Shown here piece after piece: positions 5,392-40,358 of a stretch of DNA of 64,000 nucleotides (position 1 is the stretch's first letter; each line of letters opens with the position of its first letter). The notes under the pieces were generated by a model. That model searched no databases and was not told where the DNA came from. It saw only the letters and a list, made by a program, of their open reading frames with translations. The translations under genes and the position numbers were made by a program. Origin of the DNA: a virus. Lineage: Duplodnaviria; Heunggongvirae; Uroviricota; Caudoviricetes. Location: the IMG/VR virus record IMGVR_UViG_2675903278_000002. The stretch is one strand, 5' to 3'.

Positions 5392-5643
5392 ATGCTAGGC
5401 AGCCTGATGACAAAGCTAAAAGTTGCTTTGATTACGCTGGCTGCCGTTCTTTTCGTTCTTGTCGGCGCTTACACGATGGGCGGGAATGCGGCGCGACGAG
5501 CAATGGAAGAGAAGGCAAAACAGGAAGACAGAAAACGACTTCAAAACACAGTGAAAGTGGTGAATGAGACGAGCAGTAAAATACGTCAGAAAGATGCTTC
5601 TGCCGTTCATCGTGAGTTGTATGATAAGTGGGTGCGTCATTAA
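5392..5643 (+). CDS. i-spanin (Rz-like inner membrane spanin subunit)
   Basis: N-terminal transmembrane helix LKVALITLAAVLFVLVGAY followed by a charged coiled-coil-like region; start overlaps the upstream stop; contains the o-spanin gene in another frame. Confidence 0.6.
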   Translation: MLGSLMTKLKVALITLAAVLFVLVGAYTMGGNAARRAMEEKAKQEDRKRLQNTVKVVNETSSKIRQKDASAVHRELYDKWVRH

Positions 5644-5779
5644 ACCACAAACAGCCAGCGTGTTGTTCTGCGATGGGGCTGAGCCTATCTATATCAGCAA
5701 TAATGATGTAATGACTGAAGAAACCGAACGCCAAATCCTTTTTCACAATACGATGGGAGAGAGGGTTTGTGGTTGGTGA
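5594..5779 (+). CDS. o-spanin (Rz1-like outer membrane lipoprotein), overlapping the 3' end of the i-spanin gene
   Basis: MLLPFIVSCMISGC signal peptide with lipobox cysteine; out-of-frame overlap with 5392..5643, the classic Rz/Rz1 arrangement. Confidence 0.55.
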   Translation: MLLPFIVSCMISGCVIKPQTASVLFCDGAEPIYISNNDVMTEETERQILFHNTMGERVCGW

Positions 5780-5811
5780 TGTCGAAGTTCCCCTCAAATG
5801 AGGGGAACACA

Positions 5812-6333
5812 TTATTCTTCGAACAATTTTTCGATAGATTTTGTAGGATAGAACAAAGAACGCTCGTTGTTACCAACCAGCTGGATAAAGCCTAAACTTT
5901 TATAAAACGCCTTGGCTTTGTCATTTAACGCCTCAACGAAAAGTCCATGAATGCCTACAGCAAGAGATGCATTGTACACAACGCGCATTGCATGTGTTAC
6001 AAGCATTGAGCCAAATCCTTGACCTTGAAGGGACTTGTCCAAAGCCAGCCTACCCAAAGTAACACTTGGAACATTCCGATAAGGAACCTTCTTTTGTTTG
6101 CTTCTTGAAGGTAAGGACTCCTTTTCAAAACAACTACCTGACAAAGTGTAATATCCTAACACTTTTGGCCTTTCTTCTTGAGTGCAAAGCACATAAGCAC
6201 GAAGAATTTTTCCCTCATGCTGCCTTTTTAAGTGGTTGGCTAAAAAGGCGTTTAGTGACTCTTCGCCGCAATCAAAACCGTTTAGATCATAATCTTTCTC
6301 TCCAGAGAAAATCTCTATCGTTGTATTGCTCAC
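5812..6333 (-). CDS. GNAT-family N-acetyltransferase toxin (TacT-like)
   Basis: 173 aa; acetyltransferase-like core (QGQGFGSMLV, FY motif); directly downstream of and co-oriented with a DUF1778-like antitoxin gene. Confidence 0.7.
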   Translation of the reverse strand: MSNTTIEIFSGEKDYDLNGFDCGEESLNAFLANHLKRQHEGKILRAYVLCTQEERPKVLGYYTLSGSCFEKESLPSRSKQKKVPYRNVPSVTLGRLALDKSLQGQGFGSMLVTHAMRVVYNASLAVGIHGLFVEALNDKAKAFYKSLGFIQLVGNNERSLFYPTKSIEKLFEE

Positions 6334-6340
6334 GAGTAAA

Positions 6341-6610
6341 CTACTCCATGCTTTTCAGACGATCAGCAGCTCGTTTCAGCTTGTCGTTCGGTGCCGGAGG
6401 ATTGCTTATAGCGTCCATAACCAGATTCCAGGATTCTTCATTCAGAACTAGTCTACGGTGTTGCTCTATAACTTTCACGGCACGTTCAGATGCACTGCTA
6501 ACCATAAACTGAGTAATGCTCTGGTTAGACATTGCGGCAGCTTCCTCGATGATGCTTTTATCGTCATCGGTTAATCTCAAATCGATGCGCTGCTTTTTTA
6601 GTGCTGACAT
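6341..6610 (-). CDS. DUF1778 (TacA-like) ribbon-helix-helix antitoxin
   Basis: MSALKKQRIDLRLTDDDKSIIEEAAA... matches DUF1778 antitoxins; GGAGG RBS before the ATG at 6610; 7 nt gap to the toxin gene. Confidence 0.7.
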   Translation of the reverse strand: MSALKKQRIDLRLTDDDKSIIEEAAAMSNQSITQFMVSSASERAVKVIEQHRRLVLNEESWNLVMDAISNPPAPNDKLKRAADRLKSME

Positions 6611-6928
6611 GTATTCCTCCTGATGGCCGTGATGTAGGAAGGCCATCAATCTCCTCTGTTCAAACTGAGTTTTCGACTCAAAAATTACTTTAAAAGGCTA
6701 TAGCCCATTACGTGTGCATTATCAAATTGTGTACGGCATATCACCGTACTTGTAATATAGAGGTCATTGTTACTTTTTTCAACAGACAAATACAAGCTAT
6801 GATTGCCAATTGTTAATCACAACCTACCATTTAACCTTTACACCGCAGCCGTAGGCATTTAGGCTATATCACATATAAGAAAACAAGTTGTTTCAGACGA
6901 TAATTATATACGCAAAGGGAACTCTCCA

Positions 6929-29600: not shown

Positions 29601-30200
29601 ATGGGCAATCTCATCATTGACGCTGTTAAAGCATCACGTCCGTTCGAAATGAATCCTAAGCGTTCTGCCGAAATCAACGTACTCATGACACGTATGGCGG
29701 CTGAAATGGGCTTGGGTGAGGAGTTGATACGCCCGACTATTGGTATTAAACCCAAAATCATGATCATTCTGGACAATGCGAACGGCAATGACGCTCGTAC
29801 CGGCTACTTCATGGAGAACGGATACGACGACTTTAAGGCAAAACTACTGACAGTTGGAGATCTGCGCATGGGCGATCTTTATGTCACGGGTGTTTGTAAG
29901 AAGGTTAAAGACAAAGAGAAAGACTATACCAAAGACGAGATAGGCCAGTTCACAGACTTTATGCGGGAAGAAATTAATCTTGTACGACCAACCTACATTT
30001 TGACGTGTGGTAGTCGTTCAACCGCACTATTTAACAATAAGAGTAAACCATCAGATCTGATTGGTCGTAAGGAGTACTTCCCAGAGCTTGATGCAACCGT
30101 CTTCTACGGATTTAACCCGAATATCCTGTACTTCCGACCGGAAGAAGGAGAGCGACTGGAGGCCATTCTGGCTGATATCGCGGAGACAATAAATAAGTAA
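26682..30200 (+). CDS. dnaE: DNA polymerase III alpha subunit (DnaE-type) with N-terminal PHP domain
   Basis: 1172 aa; catalytic-core motif GRGSSAGSLVAWCIGITNVDP and FERFINPER characteristic of DnaE; ATG preceded by AAAAACACATG. Confidence 0.9.
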   Translation: MKALMVRTDFSLGESALKAENAVKIAREAGYTAVISADSMNIASVIPLQRAAGDDMAVICGVKLNIVDDPTYEHRAKLAKESMRCMESLERGRNYSFTALIKNEQGYRDICELMTAANTREQFYFVPRLSLEQLVSTYAKGNIILLTSDIGSVFQRNDFAKIISTLITAGGKDNFYSVVYPHPTPFYDQINVRAMKVASALKIEPVAFYPAYYESIDDADIKDIAHMVTNNIKIDQPHRLRIPHQRDNAVNGRRHLLEALKAFSVRMDVPVTAAMASTTQDTIIDSCTWRWHELPPALPKMADDEPATLMKLAVAGLRKRLTTKEFGYTPPASENRVYVERLKYEMDTLTRLGFCGYFLMVRDLMNHSRETGIPVGPGRGSSAGSLVAWCIGITNVDPIRHGLLFERFINPERLDLPDADLDFSQARRHEVIEYLNERYGEDYVAGIPNFTYLGAASALRDTARIYGVESADMAVSKELKNAEDDSLPLEELREQLASLDKYATKYPDAFNAACKLQSLMRGFGRHAAGMIVAGVPLTERTPVERRGDARCIAFDKRYCEAMGLIKLDVLGLATLDLLDSAKRYIKENTGEDINLDAISLEDRKVLDGFAAGYTQGVFQLESGPMRKLLKDLGGGIEPMSFKTVVATTALFRPGPIQSGMLDDYVSVAKGFMTPESLHPVLDELTAETNGVILYQEQTMNATRLLAGFTMAEADAVRSAIGKKNMEKMKSMGEKFIVQAQAGWIDVELEDGTTQRIHRAEHFKCEDGTLKTVEEALEHGAKLPINAVRVTASHPGLSEMKAKEIWTAFEKNGAYQFNKSHSVAYSLISYQSMWLKTHYPAEFFAAALTILGEDKHQGLVKDALTYGIRVLPPDVNVSSNRIEIRTLEDGSQALYAPFSAVKGCSENGCQAIMRAREKVGGKFESVAQFDEAVEKRACNSRVRESLHKVGAFASIEPGSLPATDPERLRDQAELMGNLIIDAVKASRPFEMNPKRSAEINVLMTRMAAEMGLGEELIRPTIGIKPKIMIILDNANGNDARTGYFMENGYDDFKAKLLTVGDLRMGDLYVTGVCKKVKDKEKDYTKDEIGQFTDFMREEINLVRPTYILTCGSRSTALFNNKSKPSDLIGRKEYFPELDATVFYGFNPNILYFRPEEGERLEAILADIAETINK

Positions 30201-30205
30201 TAAAG

Positions 30206-30232
30206 AAAACCCGCCTGTTGGCGGGTTTATAA
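30206..30232 (+). terminator. Terminator hairpin downstream of the polymerase gene
   Basis: AACCCGCC-TGTT-GGCGGGTT hairpin followed by T-rich tail. Confidence 0.6.
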
Positions 30233-30503
30233 AGAATTATGGCGCTTGTTGAGGAAGTCACTCCTCTTACGCACTTTGTTTTGCCATGCCGGCAGTTAGC
30301 TTCTGCCTTTGACTATTCATGCGGCAACCCCGCATTTCGCCACAATGGGCAATTCACTTTTATGGAATAAACTGGCCGTTGTGTCGATTTAATTAGCATG
30401 GCCTTACCATGCTAATTTATTCAACTTGTACAATCCTGCAAATCTATCCACTCAGGCTTACACCGTCTTCGTTATTGTAGAAATGAGGATCATCAGCGTT
30501 GAA

Positions 30504-30719
30504 TCAGCTTAGAGCAACGACATTTGCTGCTGCTGGGCCTTTAGCCCCATTCTCGATAGAGAATTCGACCTGCTGGCCTTCTTCCAAAGTGCGGAAATTA
30601 TTACTCTGAATTGCCGAAAAATGTACAAAAACATCTTTACTGCCATCAGCAGGAGAAATAAAGCCAAAGCCTTTATCAGAGTTAAACCATTTTACTAAAC
30701 CAGTCATTTTATTAGACAT
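30504..30719 (-). CDS. cspA: Cold-shock protein (CspA family)
   Basis: [21 protein letters not shown]... RNP1-like motif; 71 aa from the internal ATG at 30719. Confidence 0.85.
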
Positions 30720-31048
30720 AGATATTACCTTCTTAATTTTGTGAGCCACATAGTGCGGCGAGAATTTGATCTGTATAGATTGGGACTTACTTAGGCACTT
30801 AAGGAGGAGACTCACGAAGAAGGGAAATCAGAAGATAACACTGAACTGAGACTGCTTTACTAAAACTGCTTACATAAGGTCTGTCTTGCAAACCAACGAT
30901 GCTATTAACGCATACCCCTTCTTTTCATGCAACCTTTATTTTTCAAAGATAACTAATTTTTGTCACCATTGGTTTAGTAAACGTTAACGAACCAGACGAT
31001 GCCAGACACCTTTACAGAGAACAGATGCCCGCCAATTGGCGGGCATCA

Positions 31049-31612
31049 TTATGCGCATTTCGCAATATCTTTGCGGCGTTTAATCAGTTTCTCCGCAATT
31101 TGCTCTATTTCGTTGAAATCTTTCGAGACGCTGTTTCGAAGCGCCAGATTCCATTTACTCAAAGTTCGGGCATTTTGGACAATTTGATCGCCCTCTTTAA
31201 GTCGTCCGTTATTCATGAGCCATTCAGCCACATCAGCCCAATCCCAGAGAGGAGACTGGCCTTTTATGCGTTGTACAGGGCAAGGGAAGTCGCCGCTTCC
31301 GCGCTTACCGTCTTTGAGCAACGCCACTGCCTGGCGAGACAGGTCTGTCAGTTCCGCGATATCGCTTAAGCCCACAAGAGCCGAGTCGACGGATTCAACA
31401 ATTGCACCGATACCGGCTGATTCAATATTGTCGACCGCAGATGCGATAGCTGCATCAAGTGATTGTGCTTCGCGGTCAAATTCTACATAGACGGAGTTTC
31501 CATATGCGCAAATTAGCGCATCGTCACAGCCGTTTTGGTACAGCGCGTCTTCCAGTCCTTCCGTCTCATACGATACGCCTGAGAGCGTCAGAGTGAAGTT
31601 ATAAAGCGCCAT
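31049..31612 (-). CDS. Hypothetical protein; second gene of a minus-strand two-gene operon
   Basis: AAGGA RBS 5 nt before the ATG at 31612; no motif assigned with confidence. Confidence 0.45.
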   Translation of the reverse strand: MALYNFTLTLSGVSYETEGLEDALYQNGCDDALICAYGNSVYVEFDREAQSLDAAIASAVDNIESAGIGAIVESVDSALVGLSDIAELTDLSRQAVALLKDGKRGSGDFPCPVQRIKGQSPLWDWADVAEWLMNNGRLKEGDQIVQNARTLSKWNLALRNSVSKDFNEIEQIAEKLIKRRKDIAKCA

Positions 31613-31672
31613 AGTTTTCCTTTGAAGATAGTTGGACAGTTTCTGCAAAAGGCGGCTAATGCCGCCTTGAAA

Positions 31673-31897
31673 TCATTTACAACGATCAACCATTCGTTTG
31701 ATCTGTTTGGCATGGTTTTCGGGATTACCCGGAGTCGACCATACGCTCATTTGGTGAGTTTTGTGTTCACCTTCTGGATTACCGCATCGCAGTCTGCAAA
31801 AACAATGTGCAGCACCACCAGCTGCTACCCAGATCCAGCCTTTACTTAATGCATAGTCAATGGCTGCTTGAATATGCTTATTCGGATGTTGCTTCAT
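31673..31897 (-). CDS. Small protein (74 aa), weakly HicA-like; toxin candidate
   Basis: MKQ... start and segments KGWIWVAAGGAAH / SVWSTPGNP loosely resemble HicA; precedes a larger gene in the same operon. Confidence 0.35.
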   Translation of the reverse strand: MKQHPNKHIQAAIDYALSKGWIWVAAGGAAHCFCRLRCGNPEGEHKTHQMSVWSTPGNPENHAKQIKRMVDRCK

Positions 31898-32150
31898 TCG
31901 CCTCCGATAATAGTATTCTATTCACAGTGTTGACATCTGTCAACGGCGACTGAATTTCATCCGTTCATGCCACACCCCCATCCATCTCATGTATGTGACC
32001 TAAAGATGGTCAGCACAGCTTACCAAAATAAGACAACTAATTATCTTCGGTGATCTCAATATTTCCCCTGAACAAAGTTGACATGACGCCATAAACCCGT
32101 TCTCTGTTTGATATAATTGATACAGATTTTATAAGTAGGAACCTATTAGA

Positions 32151-32582
32151 GTGAACACTGATATTTTTTCTAAAATCATGGCCGATCTGGAGTTCGACCG
32201 CGACAACCTTGAGGAAGTATGGCGTAAACAGCCACGGCTTTTAATGGAGTATGGGTCAAAACTAGCGCAGGCAGATCGAGATGTCGCAGAGGCAAAACTT
32301 AACCTTGAAGCTGTTGAAGCAAAGCTATACGACACAGAGCGTAAGAACTTGAGTATGAACGGCATTAAGTTTAACGAGTCTGTACTGGACGCTAAGGTTA
32401 AAACAAACCCACAGTATCTGTCTAAACGGCAGAAGTTGGATGAAGCACGGCACATCGCAGACATATACAAACATGCTGTCGCCGCCTTTTCGCATCGCCG
32501 AGACATGATCGTTCAGGCGTCAAAGATGGCCATCGTTGAATTAGAGCGATTAGGCTCTGAACGCTTTATTACTCCCCGTTGA
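32151..32582 (+). CDS. Hypothetical coiled-coil protein (GTG start)
   Basis: 143 aa ORF; charged helical composition. Confidence 0.4.
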   Translation: MNTDIFSKIMADLEFDRDNLEEVWRKQPRLLMEYGSKLAQADRDVAEAKLNLEAVEAKLYDTERKNLSMNGIKFNESVLDAKVKTNPQYLSKRQKLDEARHIADIYKHAVAAFSHRRDMIVQASKMAIVELERLGSERFITPR

Positions 32583-39302: not shown

Positions 39303-40358
39303 CTATTTGCGAGTCTTTGCCTTGCGCAACTCTTCGAGAAGCGCCAGTTCTTCTTTACTCAACATGACCATTTTGCCTTCTTTTTCGTCAGGCACAACGT
39401 CGATAATGTCATCTTGATTCTCATCTGGGAGGCTATATTCCGTCTCATCATTATCGATTTTTGTTGATATTTGTGCCTGGCGTAACTTTGGCCGCCTATA
39501 GTGGATGACGAAGTAGACCGAGTTTCCGCGCTTAACTTCCGTGTAATCGAGATATCCTATCTCTCGCAGCTGTTCCATAGCCTTTCTTACCGTCGCATTC
39601 TGAGTAATAGTGCGACTTGTCAGATTAAGTCTGGCGCGTAAACGGGCTAGTGATATTGGTGCCGGATCAGGCGGCAAACTTTCAATAAAAGTATAAAGCG
39701 CCTGAGCGGATTCTTTTCTTGAGAGTTCGTTTATAGCCCGGAGTTGCAGAAGAACCTTTTTGTCGAACTGGTAGAGTTCGAAAATCTTGGGATCTGCTTT
39801 CAGTTCGACCGTATCGTGCTTGACACTATATTTTGCCGTTTGCACAAGATGCGTTACGTAAAACTCATCAGAGCCTTTGCTACGGAACGAGATGGTATTT
39901 GTGGCAATACGGCTTAGCGAACTGTCCAGGCGTTTGCGTAACTTCGCTGATGACCTGGCGGTCGGAATGCCACACAGCCTTACAAACTCAACGAACGGCA
40001 ACGTGACAGTATCGCCAACGACCTTGTGTTTGGCAAACGCGTGGATTATTCCCACCCACGTTTTAAAGTCGTTATCCATATCAAGCCGAAGGCCAGAGAT
40101 CCTTATGTCTTCGTACCCTTCGGCTTTTGCCAGAGACAGCTGTTTGAGTTCAGCAGAGGCATCCATAGAGACCATTTGCCCCTTTCTTCCTCTGGATGTC
40201 GATTTCAGCGTCGGAACGAAGAGGCCCAGACGCATCAAAGCAACAGGCTGAACAGTGTTATTAGTGTTAGGAACCAACGTAACAACTTCGCCTGTCTTTT
40301 TATCTGTTTCTGAAAATGCTTCAACGATCGCTATGTTTTTATTGCCGTTTTCGCTCAT
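39303..40358 (-). CDS. repA: Iteron-binding plasmid replication initiator (RepA-like)
   Basis: 351 aa ORF flanked on both sides by iteron arrays, with DnaA boxes and an AT-rich stretch upstream. Confidence 0.75.

Follow-up and report, generated by a model that had tools for sequence, protein, structure and literature searches.

HicAB, MqsRA and HigBA are the described toxin-antitoxin (TA) systems with which the locus presented here is compared. The N-terminal toxin-binding domain of HicB is a partial RNase-H-like fold, MqsRA and HigBA combine a reverse (toxin-first) gene order with an antitoxin that carries a helix-turn-helix (HTH) and exerts its repression at a palindrome which overlaps the promoter, and a zinc-stabilised small TA protein has a precedent in MqsA with its metal-binding Cys/His site. 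The subject of this study is a two-gene cassette, made up of genes A and B, on the minus strand of a 64,000-nucleotide stretch of viral DNA (IMG/VR record IMGVR_UViG_2675903278_000002, Caudoviricetes), which is referred to as the window. The window is in essence Escherichia phage Cyrano (OV696614.1, 108 kb), with an identity of 99.7% over positions 30300..32300; Cyrano is pLF82, an SSU5-like phage-plasmid hosted by the adherent-invasive E. coli (AIEC) strain LF82 (PMC9928086).

The idea that these genes form a TA pair is not new, as it is already present in public annotation and in PADLOC. Misson et al. 2023 (PMC9928086) label the pair HicA and HicB, and the Cyrano record names A 'HicA toxin protein' (CYRAN_51) and B 'putative antitoxin HicB' (CYRAN_50); a first-pass annotation of the window likewise proposed a possible HicAB-type module. 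In PADLOC, model PDC-M06A recognises A (1.2e-19) and model PDC-M06B recognises B (1.3e-32), adjacent and in the same order, and on these matches the pair is assigned to the same family as the phage defence candidate PDC-M06. The latter is one of 145 PADLOC candidates nominated by their embedding in BREX, DISARM or type I restriction-modification (RM) loci (Payne et al. 2024, 10.1101/2024.01.29.577857), and the cassette table of that preprint lists 497 beside PDC-M06. No mention of PDC-M06 was found in the literature searched beyond the PADLOC preprint and, for the pair as such, only the Cyrano paper and this preprint proved relevant. What is new here is that the HicAB label fails for B and is, in the case of A, unproven, together with a putative 16-bp operator that is universal, an asymmetry in the decay of the two genes, their distribution, and a set of conserved residues. 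With a probability of about 0.55, we propose that A-B is an autoregulated cassette of a type II TA-like or abortive-infection kind, in which A would be harmful, possibly as an RNase, and B would serve as antitoxin and repressor.

A and B read as one operon, with a single promoter, a 60-nt intergenic spacer and a terminator-like hairpin after B (Table 1); in the promoter scan, 11 of 12 consensus positions were matched. Two small, adjacent and co-oriented genes in one operon are the generic layout of type II TA systems, and in a distant relative the two genes overlap. The operon is active in the LF82 lysogen, where transcription exceeds the prophage background 30-fold for A and 14-fold for B (PMC9928086).

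The comparative evidence is centred on the palindrome which overlaps the -35 hexamer of this promoter. It had been reported at 31931..31946 in the first-pass annotation; the element is real and lies 2 nt away from that position. Loci with relatives of B were collected from 80 species genomes and 57 viral contigs, and the region upstream of A was extracted. Exact GTTGAC-N4-GTCAAC was present in 84 of the 93 distinct upstream regions, which come from many genera, and the remaining nine deviate by 1-3 bases in the same place. The distance to the start codon of A ranges from 41 to 67 nt (median 47). Across these homologous loci the centre of the palindrome takes 37 different 4-nt versions and the flanks are unrelated, with a -10-like hexamer kept at constant spacing. 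A total of 117 copies of the palindrome were counted over 1.4 Mb of related loci, against about 0.1 expected by chance according to our own estimate, and every one of them is found just upstream of the cassette, all but 5 ahead of A and those 5 ahead of an orphan B (60-135 nt). Conservation across genera despite a varying centre and varying flanks, along with the overlap with the -35 hexamer, makes it very likely that the palindrome is an operator, in agreement with what had been suggested for this locus.

Since the palindrome also precedes B genes which have no A, the motif travels with B, and this constitutes strong comparative evidence that B would be a sequence-specific, probably dimeric, autorepressor. 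With one mismatch allowed, the 64-kb window holds a single match to GTTGAC-N4-GTCAAC, so that the visible target of B here is its own promoter. A separate element, ACAAAGTTGACAT at 32072..32084, agrees with the left arm of the operator (31924..31936) at 11 of 13 bases and places one GTTGAC half-site ahead of the promoter of uvsY. This half-site is confined to the Cyrano group and absent from other SSU5-like elements, and is therefore probably due to chance. Control by B of the divergent uvsY/gp32/exo/recA operon through the half-site at 32077..32082 was considered and dropped, given its absence elsewhere and the lack of a second palindrome in the window.

The linkage between the two genes is tight and their loss is uneven. 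B follows A in all 58 viral loci selected through A, including pairs whose B is about 40% identical, in a sample which is redundant and dominated by phage-plasmids. When loci were instead selected through B, A was found shortly upstream in about 120 out of 137, with tblastn gaps of 31-106 nt in most. Among the 80 species-level loci of this second set, A is intact in 66, disrupted in 7 and absent in 7, the disruptions consisting of internal stops (L019, L028, L030) and truncations (L031, L061, L069, L072). At most of the loci where A is absent or disrupted, B is full-length or nearly so; one SSU5-like lineage (L133-L137) has lost A and carries an N-terminally truncated B beside uvsY. B accompanying A in 58/58 loci and A lost or pseudogenised in 14/80 correspond to the asymmetric dependence typical of TA pairs. 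The earlier suggestion of a TA pair is supported by comparative behaviour, i.e. tight linkage, asymmetric decay and insertion as a portable unit, and it does not hold for the HicAB-type identity of B.

Phage-plasmids, prophages and chromosomes all carry the cassette, which is a portable insert of two genes. SSU5-like phage-plasmids carry it in the same slot between dnaE and uvsY, with differing cargo after B, and SSU5 itself has a copy with 57% identity. In Providencia stuartii it occupies a fixed chromosomal site, next to a variable region that contains RM or retron-like genes, in Pseudoalteromonas it lies within an integrase/IS110 island, in Shewanella inside a lambda-like tail module, and in Sodalis in an ssb/uvrA neighbourhood. 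In a P2-like prophage of Histophilus, where A and B overlap, it adjoins Phd/YoeB. In PLSDB, A was detected in 286 plasmids, mostly non-mobilizable and, among those listed, mostly of 95-120 kb; 63 of the records with A are from Yersinia, Y. pestis pMT1 among them. Every annotated gene underlying the PLSDB matches to A is named 'hypothetical protein'.

An exhaustive hidden Markov model search extended the A family to 714 representatives (clusters at 50% identity), in which H4, A12, A16, W21, H31, C38, T55, P56, A63 and C73 are near-invariant. In the wider family a CPx6C...CxH pattern is also seen, suggestive of a structural zinc site. The AlphaFold model of A (predicted local distance difference test, pLDDT, 88.8) consists of a helix at residues 7-18, strands at 21-25, 32-38 and 49-53, and a helix at 59-72. 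In this model A is a small protein rich in His and Cys, with an alpha-beta-beta-beta-alpha order and a fold weakly resembling that of HicA. No useful match to A was retrieved from Pfam (E up to 1), NCBIfam or the sequences of the PDB, and in PHROGs it belongs to a family of unknown function. A Foldseek comparison of the model with the PDB returned nothing significant and no HicA, and HicA_toxin was recognised in 0 of 128 distant relatives of A that were scanned with Pfam for a bridge to that family. When profiles of A were aligned by hhalign to a verified PF07927 profile, the probability reached 22-45% at best in local, greedy and global modes. In these weak alignments (22-45% probability) the G-W junction is matched and H31 comes to lie a single residue away from the initial His in the GSHHH motif of HicA; H31 is invariant and stands immediately before beta2 (residues 32-38), where hhalign places the GSHH motif. 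An HPNK/PHPKK match produced by the global mode was discarded as spurious. The loose HicA resemblance noted for the 74-aa protein therefore survives, weakly, at the level of topology: the model suggests an arrangement like the dsRBD-like alpha1-beta1-beta2-beta3-alpha2 fold of HicA, while homology is unproven.

Protein B departs further from its label. Its AlphaFold model (pLDDT 82) comprises a ferredoxin-like beta-alpha-beta-beta-alpha-beta N-domain (residues 1-77), a poorly resolved HTH region at approximately 80-135 and two long helices at 143-186. PHROGs classifies B as 'excisionase and transcriptional regulator', with excisionase families aligning to residues 71-150, and Pfam gave weak Phage_AlpA matches in 9 of 36 homologues. 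Neither B of the window nor the 36 homologues matched HicB or HicB-like Pfam families (E up to 1), and B yielded nothing of useful significance from Pfam, NCBIfam or PDB sequences. A C-terminal DNA-binding region of the HicB kind had been anticipated; what the model places there is a pair of long helices, the DNA-binding signal being a central AlpA/excisionase-like HTH ahead of them, with no ribbon-helix-helix (RHH) or Xre domain, and the identification of the 187-aa protein as a HicB-type antitoxin lacks any HicB match in Pfam. Profile searches of both proteins for toxin or antitoxin families recovered none from Pfam or NCBIfam, and the chance-level matches of the sequence searches, to RuBisCO small chain, lectins and CagE, were set aside and included no TA family. 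B is not HicB, and its likeness is limited to the presence of a globular N-domain and a DNA-binding part.

The spacer between the genes has a feature of its own. Of the 57 distinct spacers that measure 45 nt or more, 51 have a GC-rich hairpin right after the stop codon of A, in comparison to 14% of shuffles. The hairpin is built from 41 different sequences, and short spacers do not have it. Its reading as a canonical intrinsic terminator was abandoned because a T-rich tail follows in 6 of the 51 cases only. In the window, this hairpin (31649..31668) is probably a partial attenuator or an mRNA-stability element and, together with the two-fold higher transcript of A, it may reflect attenuation or differential message stability.

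Upstream of the promoter, 16 distinct relatives, both phage-plasmids and chromosomes, share a CTG-GCCGTAGA-CAG motif, mostly 102-115 nt (range 73-115) before A; at loci L012 and L014, for example, it is found about 104 and about 102 nt from the start of A, and it is absent from the locus of the window. Its flanking stems vary yet stay complementary (CAAAAGCTG...CAGCTTTTG vs GCTTTTGCTG...CAGCAAAAGC). The motif may be an insulating hairpin or a boundary of the mobile cassette.

In the mechanism that we propose, the pair would be transcribed in the plasmid (lysogenic) state from its strong sigma-70 promoter. B, probably dimerising, perhaps through its C-terminal helices, would bind both GTTGAC half-sites over the -35 hexamer by means of its AlpA/excisionase-like HTH and repress its own operon, and its ferredoxin-like N-domain would bind and neutralise A. 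The harmful partner would be A, a small protein of alpha-beta3-alpha build, probably stabilised by zinc, in which H4, H31 and H62 are conserved; as its fold is nearest to the HicA mRNA interferases, RNA cleavage would be its likeliest activity. Should B be lost or degraded, on plasmid loss or under infection stress, free A would arrest or kill the cell. The phage-plasmid would in this way be stabilised, superinfection would be aborted, or both.

Several points weigh against this proposal. Of the two genes it is the upstream one, A, whose mRNA is more abundant, and the hairpin precedes B; this fits slightly awkwardly with a simple antitoxin-excess model, which does not predict it. That A is lost where B is kept would also agree with A being a dispensable co-factor in place of a toxin. 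The HTH region of B is modelled at low confidence (pLDDT 45-62 over approximately 85-125), and the matches which back it are weak ones to AlpA and excisionase families. Furthermore, the binding of B to the palindrome, the interaction of A with B, the toxicity and RNase chemistry of A and its zinc site are, across the family, properties that we infer. The main rival reading is a non-toxic regulatory module, in which B would be an ordinary autoregulated transcription factor with a ligand-sensing ferredoxin/ACT-like domain and A a zinc-binding co-regulator or anti-repressor. A conserved operator speaks for regulation and not for toxicity, A shows no significant match to a toxin family by sequence or by Foldseek, A mRNA exceeds B mRNA, and B occurs alone with the operator. 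Nevertheless, no regulon is visible beyond the cassette, the palindrome being unique in the window and restricted to the cassette in the 1.4 Mb of related loci, and A has repeatedly acquired nonsense mutations while B was kept. The bare gene pair hops into tail modules, P2-like prophage regions and chromosomes, as is typical of selfish or defence modules, and it is embedded in defence systems. A purely regulatory role is for these reasons regarded as unlikely.

The embedding just mentioned is also the basis on which PDC-M06 was nominated, in BREX, DISARM or type I RM loci, and it favours an anti-phage system in which B would sense infection and A would act as the abortive-infection effector, addiction being absent or secondary. 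Both proteins match the PDC-M06A and PDC-M06B models, prophage inserts adjoin other TA or defence genes, and the genes are expressed from the prophage state. On the other hand, PDC-M06 is listed by its authors as a candidate only, and the cassette is near-core and syntenic in low-copy SSU5-like phage-plasmids, pMT1 included, for which addiction is an equally natural role. As an account that does without addiction, this one appears rather improbable to us; given that the defence and addiction roles are compatible, it is a variant of the TA-like or abortive-infection cassette and not a true alternative to it. Much further from the evidence is a bona fide HicAB system, with A as HicA mRNA interferase and B as HicB antitoxin. 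The names in the Cyrano record and in Misson et al. 2023 point that way, and the toxin-first order and the protein sizes resemble those of hicAB. Against this, neither protein, nor any of the 128 homologues of A or 36 of B, matches Pfam HicA_toxin or HicB; no NCBIfam TA model matches, Foldseek returns no HicA, and the comparison with profiles of genuine PF07927 members stops at 22-45%. A true HicAB is very unlikely, because the defining features of HicB were looked for and are missing, and those of HicA are weak at best.

Returning to the autoregulated TA-like or abortive-infection cassette, a broader formulation can be put forward tentatively, with considerably less confidence than the core proposal. 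A-B would found a new, widespread type II TA/abortive-infection family, pairing a zinc-stabilised nuclease of HicA-like fold with an antitoxin composed of ferredoxin domain, AlpA-HTH and helical dimeriser, under the shared operator GTTGAC-N4-GTCAAC; SSU5-like elements, pMT1 included, would use the cassette both for their retention and for the exclusion of competing phages.

The surroundings of the cassette were described in the first-pass annotation as a minus-strand islet of three genes in an otherwise plus-strand genome. The ORF (open reading frame) listing and the reading of the sequence bear out three adjoining minus-strand genes at 30504-31897, and a candidate for the polymerase terminator named as the border is also present, the dnaE-like ORF stopping at 30200 and being followed by a GC-rich hairpin (30207..30228), probably a bidirectional terminator which delimits the islet. 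The remaining genome is mostly, although not entirely, plus-strand, as two further minus-strand islets were found (5812..6649 and 39303..40358). The gene set at 5432..6649, in which the antitoxin matches Pfam TacA1 (8.6e-26), probably corresponds to the KacT/antitoxin genes that PMC9928086 lists for Cyrano. Since this tacAT-like pair and the Rep3 initiator are also minus-strand, the minus-strand islets of the element appear to carry genes for plasmid life.

Table 1. Positions of the features of the A-B cassette, the islet and related minus-strand genes in the window
Feature	Position	Strand	Basis or detail
Gene A, 74 aa, putative toxin	31673..31897	minus	ORF listing
Gene B, 187 aa, putative antitoxin and autorepressor	31049..31612	minus	ORF listing
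Sigma-70 promoter of A-B	31915..31943	minus	-35 TTGACA 31943..31938, 17-nt spacer, -10 TAGAAT 31920..31915
GGAGG ribosome-binding site ahead of A	31905..31901	minus	
Palindrome GTTGACATCTGTCAAC, GTTGAC-ATCT-GTCAAC, overlapping the -35 hexamer; very likely operator	31929..31944	.	sequence scan
Spacer stem-loop, 8-bp GC stem, AAGGCGGC-AUUA-GCCGCCUU	31649..31668	minus	minimum free energy -16.1 kcal/mol, z -1.8
Terminator-like hairpin GATGCCCGCC-AATT-GGCGGGCATC directly after B	31024..31047	minus	terminator scan
5' leader of csp mRNA, 178 nt, cspA thermoregulator	30720..30897	minus	Rfam RF01766
CspA-family cold-shock gene (csp), 71 aa from ATG, closest to CspG/CspB	30504..30719	minus	Pfam, NCBIfam
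Perfect 11-bp AT-rich hairpin AATTAGCATGG-loop-CCATGCTAATT downstream of csp	30389..30422	.	sequence reading
43-aa ORF, gene status unsupported	30239..30370	plus	between dnaE terminator and csp 3' end; no match in Pfam
GC-rich hairpin AAACCCGCC-loop-GGCGGGTTT	30207..30228	.	terminator scan; between dnaE end and islet
Unassigned 126-aa gene of a further minus-strand islet	5432..5812	minus	
GNAT acetyltransferase toxin-like gene, same islet	5812..6333	minus	
TacA-type antitoxin, same islet	6341..6649	minus	
Rep3-family replication initiator	39303..40358	minus	Rep3_N 1.3e-10, Rep3_C 1.3e-4

The third gene of the islet was correctly assigned to the CspA family. It encodes a full cold-shock domain (Pfam CSD, 115 bits, 1.4e-33), exceeds the NCBIfam cutoffs of CspG (146.6 bits, cutoff 144) and CspA (140.2, cutoff 130), and forms part of a full cspA thermoregulator RNA: the RF01766 match takes in the gene and its 178-nt leader, spanning 30479..30897 over model positions 1-428, with 185.7 bits (gathering score 78) and E 1.3e-50. 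The ORF list gives a longer csp frame with a GTG start at 30815, and the Cyrano record leaves the gene without annotation. The terminator-like hairpin at 31047..31024 separates csp from the A-B operon, so that csp is a unit of its own and the islet is composed of two independent transcription units. Downstream of csp, the hairpin at 30389..30422, which surfaced only through a spurious sub-threshold mir-2187 match in the RNA family scan, may be the 3' end of the csp transcript or a plus-strand terminator. At 99% identity or more, the csp gene is found in 90 records from 5,426 complete E. coli genomes, one listed example being a 108.6-kb plasmid in which PGAP/RefSeq names it cspG. Of the 137 related loci, only those of the Cyrano group, which are near-identical, have csp next to A-B, and in Enterobacter hormaechei relatives unrelated genes fill the slot after B. 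A functional tie between csp and the A-B pair was therefore dropped, the adjacency being limited to the Cyrano group and other SSU5-like elements differing after B; csp is ordinary cargo in a variable slot of SSU5-like phage-plasmids and adds little.

Further observations concern the neighbouring replication and recombination genes. The uvsY-like gene (32151..32582) has an extended -10 element, TGATATAAT, at 32109..32117 on the plus strand, without a good -35; TGATAAAAT is kept at the corresponding position in other SSU5-like elements, and the consensus promoter scan missed the element. In the SSU5-like plasmids of Enterobacter hormaechei (L139..L141), the RecA gene holds an intein with a LAGLIDADG endonuclease and an HNH/NUMOD4 homing-endonuclease gene splits the dnaE region, in contrast to the uninterrupted dnaE of the window (1172 aa).

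In comparison with known systems, csp resembles cspA, cspB, cspG and cspI of E. coli, including the copies of Tritos/Qin-type prophages, in combining a 70-aa CSD protein with a long thermosensing 5' leader (RF01766). Like cspB and cspI, both carried by prophage Tritos of the same strain, LF82 (PMC9928086), it is cargo of a temperate element. It differs from the nearest chromosomal csp genes of E. coli, with which DNA identity is only about 74%, and its link to A-B is confined to the Cyrano group. As regards the cassette, neither MqsR/MqsA nor HigB/HigA was matched in the searches, be it by sequence or by fold, a likeness that was not specifically tested; differently from MqsRA, the putative zinc site here is in the toxin-like protein.

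The parallels with HicAB (PF07927 HicA_toxin; HicB) are those of architecture: a small toxin-like gene is followed by a larger, putatively DNA-binding partner, a palindrome that is very likely an operator lies at the promoter, A has an invariant His at the start of beta2 in its model, and B joins an N-terminal globular domain to a putative DNA-binding part. The differences affect both proteins, and a sequence relationship is undetectable (Pfam negative; hhalign 22-45%). Unlike HicA, A bears an N-terminal HPNK motif and extra conserved Cys/His residues (C38, H45/H48 or Cys, C73), which suggest a zinc site. Unlike HicB, B is predicted to have a ferredoxin-like N-domain in place of a degraded RNase-H-like one, and an AlpA/excisionase-like DNA-binding element in place of RHH or Xre. 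PDC-M06, to whose family the pair is assigned, is a catalogue entry based on genomic embedding only, which comes without description of function, mechanism, operator or structure. If A is a toxin and B an operator-binding antitoxin, the type II TA/defence repertoire would gain a new family with clinically relevant carriers, namely the AIEC LF82 phage-plasmid, Y. pestis pMT1 and phage-plasmids of Enterobacter, Klebsiella and Citrobacter. The operator, which stays invariant even where B proteins share only about 40% identity, is a convenient entry point for genetic work and for the detection of more members. The published HicAB label would then be corrected, and PDC-M06 would acquire a concrete and directly testable mechanism, with the 16-bp operator, the candidate catalytic residues H4, K7, H31 and H62, and the putative zinc site as its handles.

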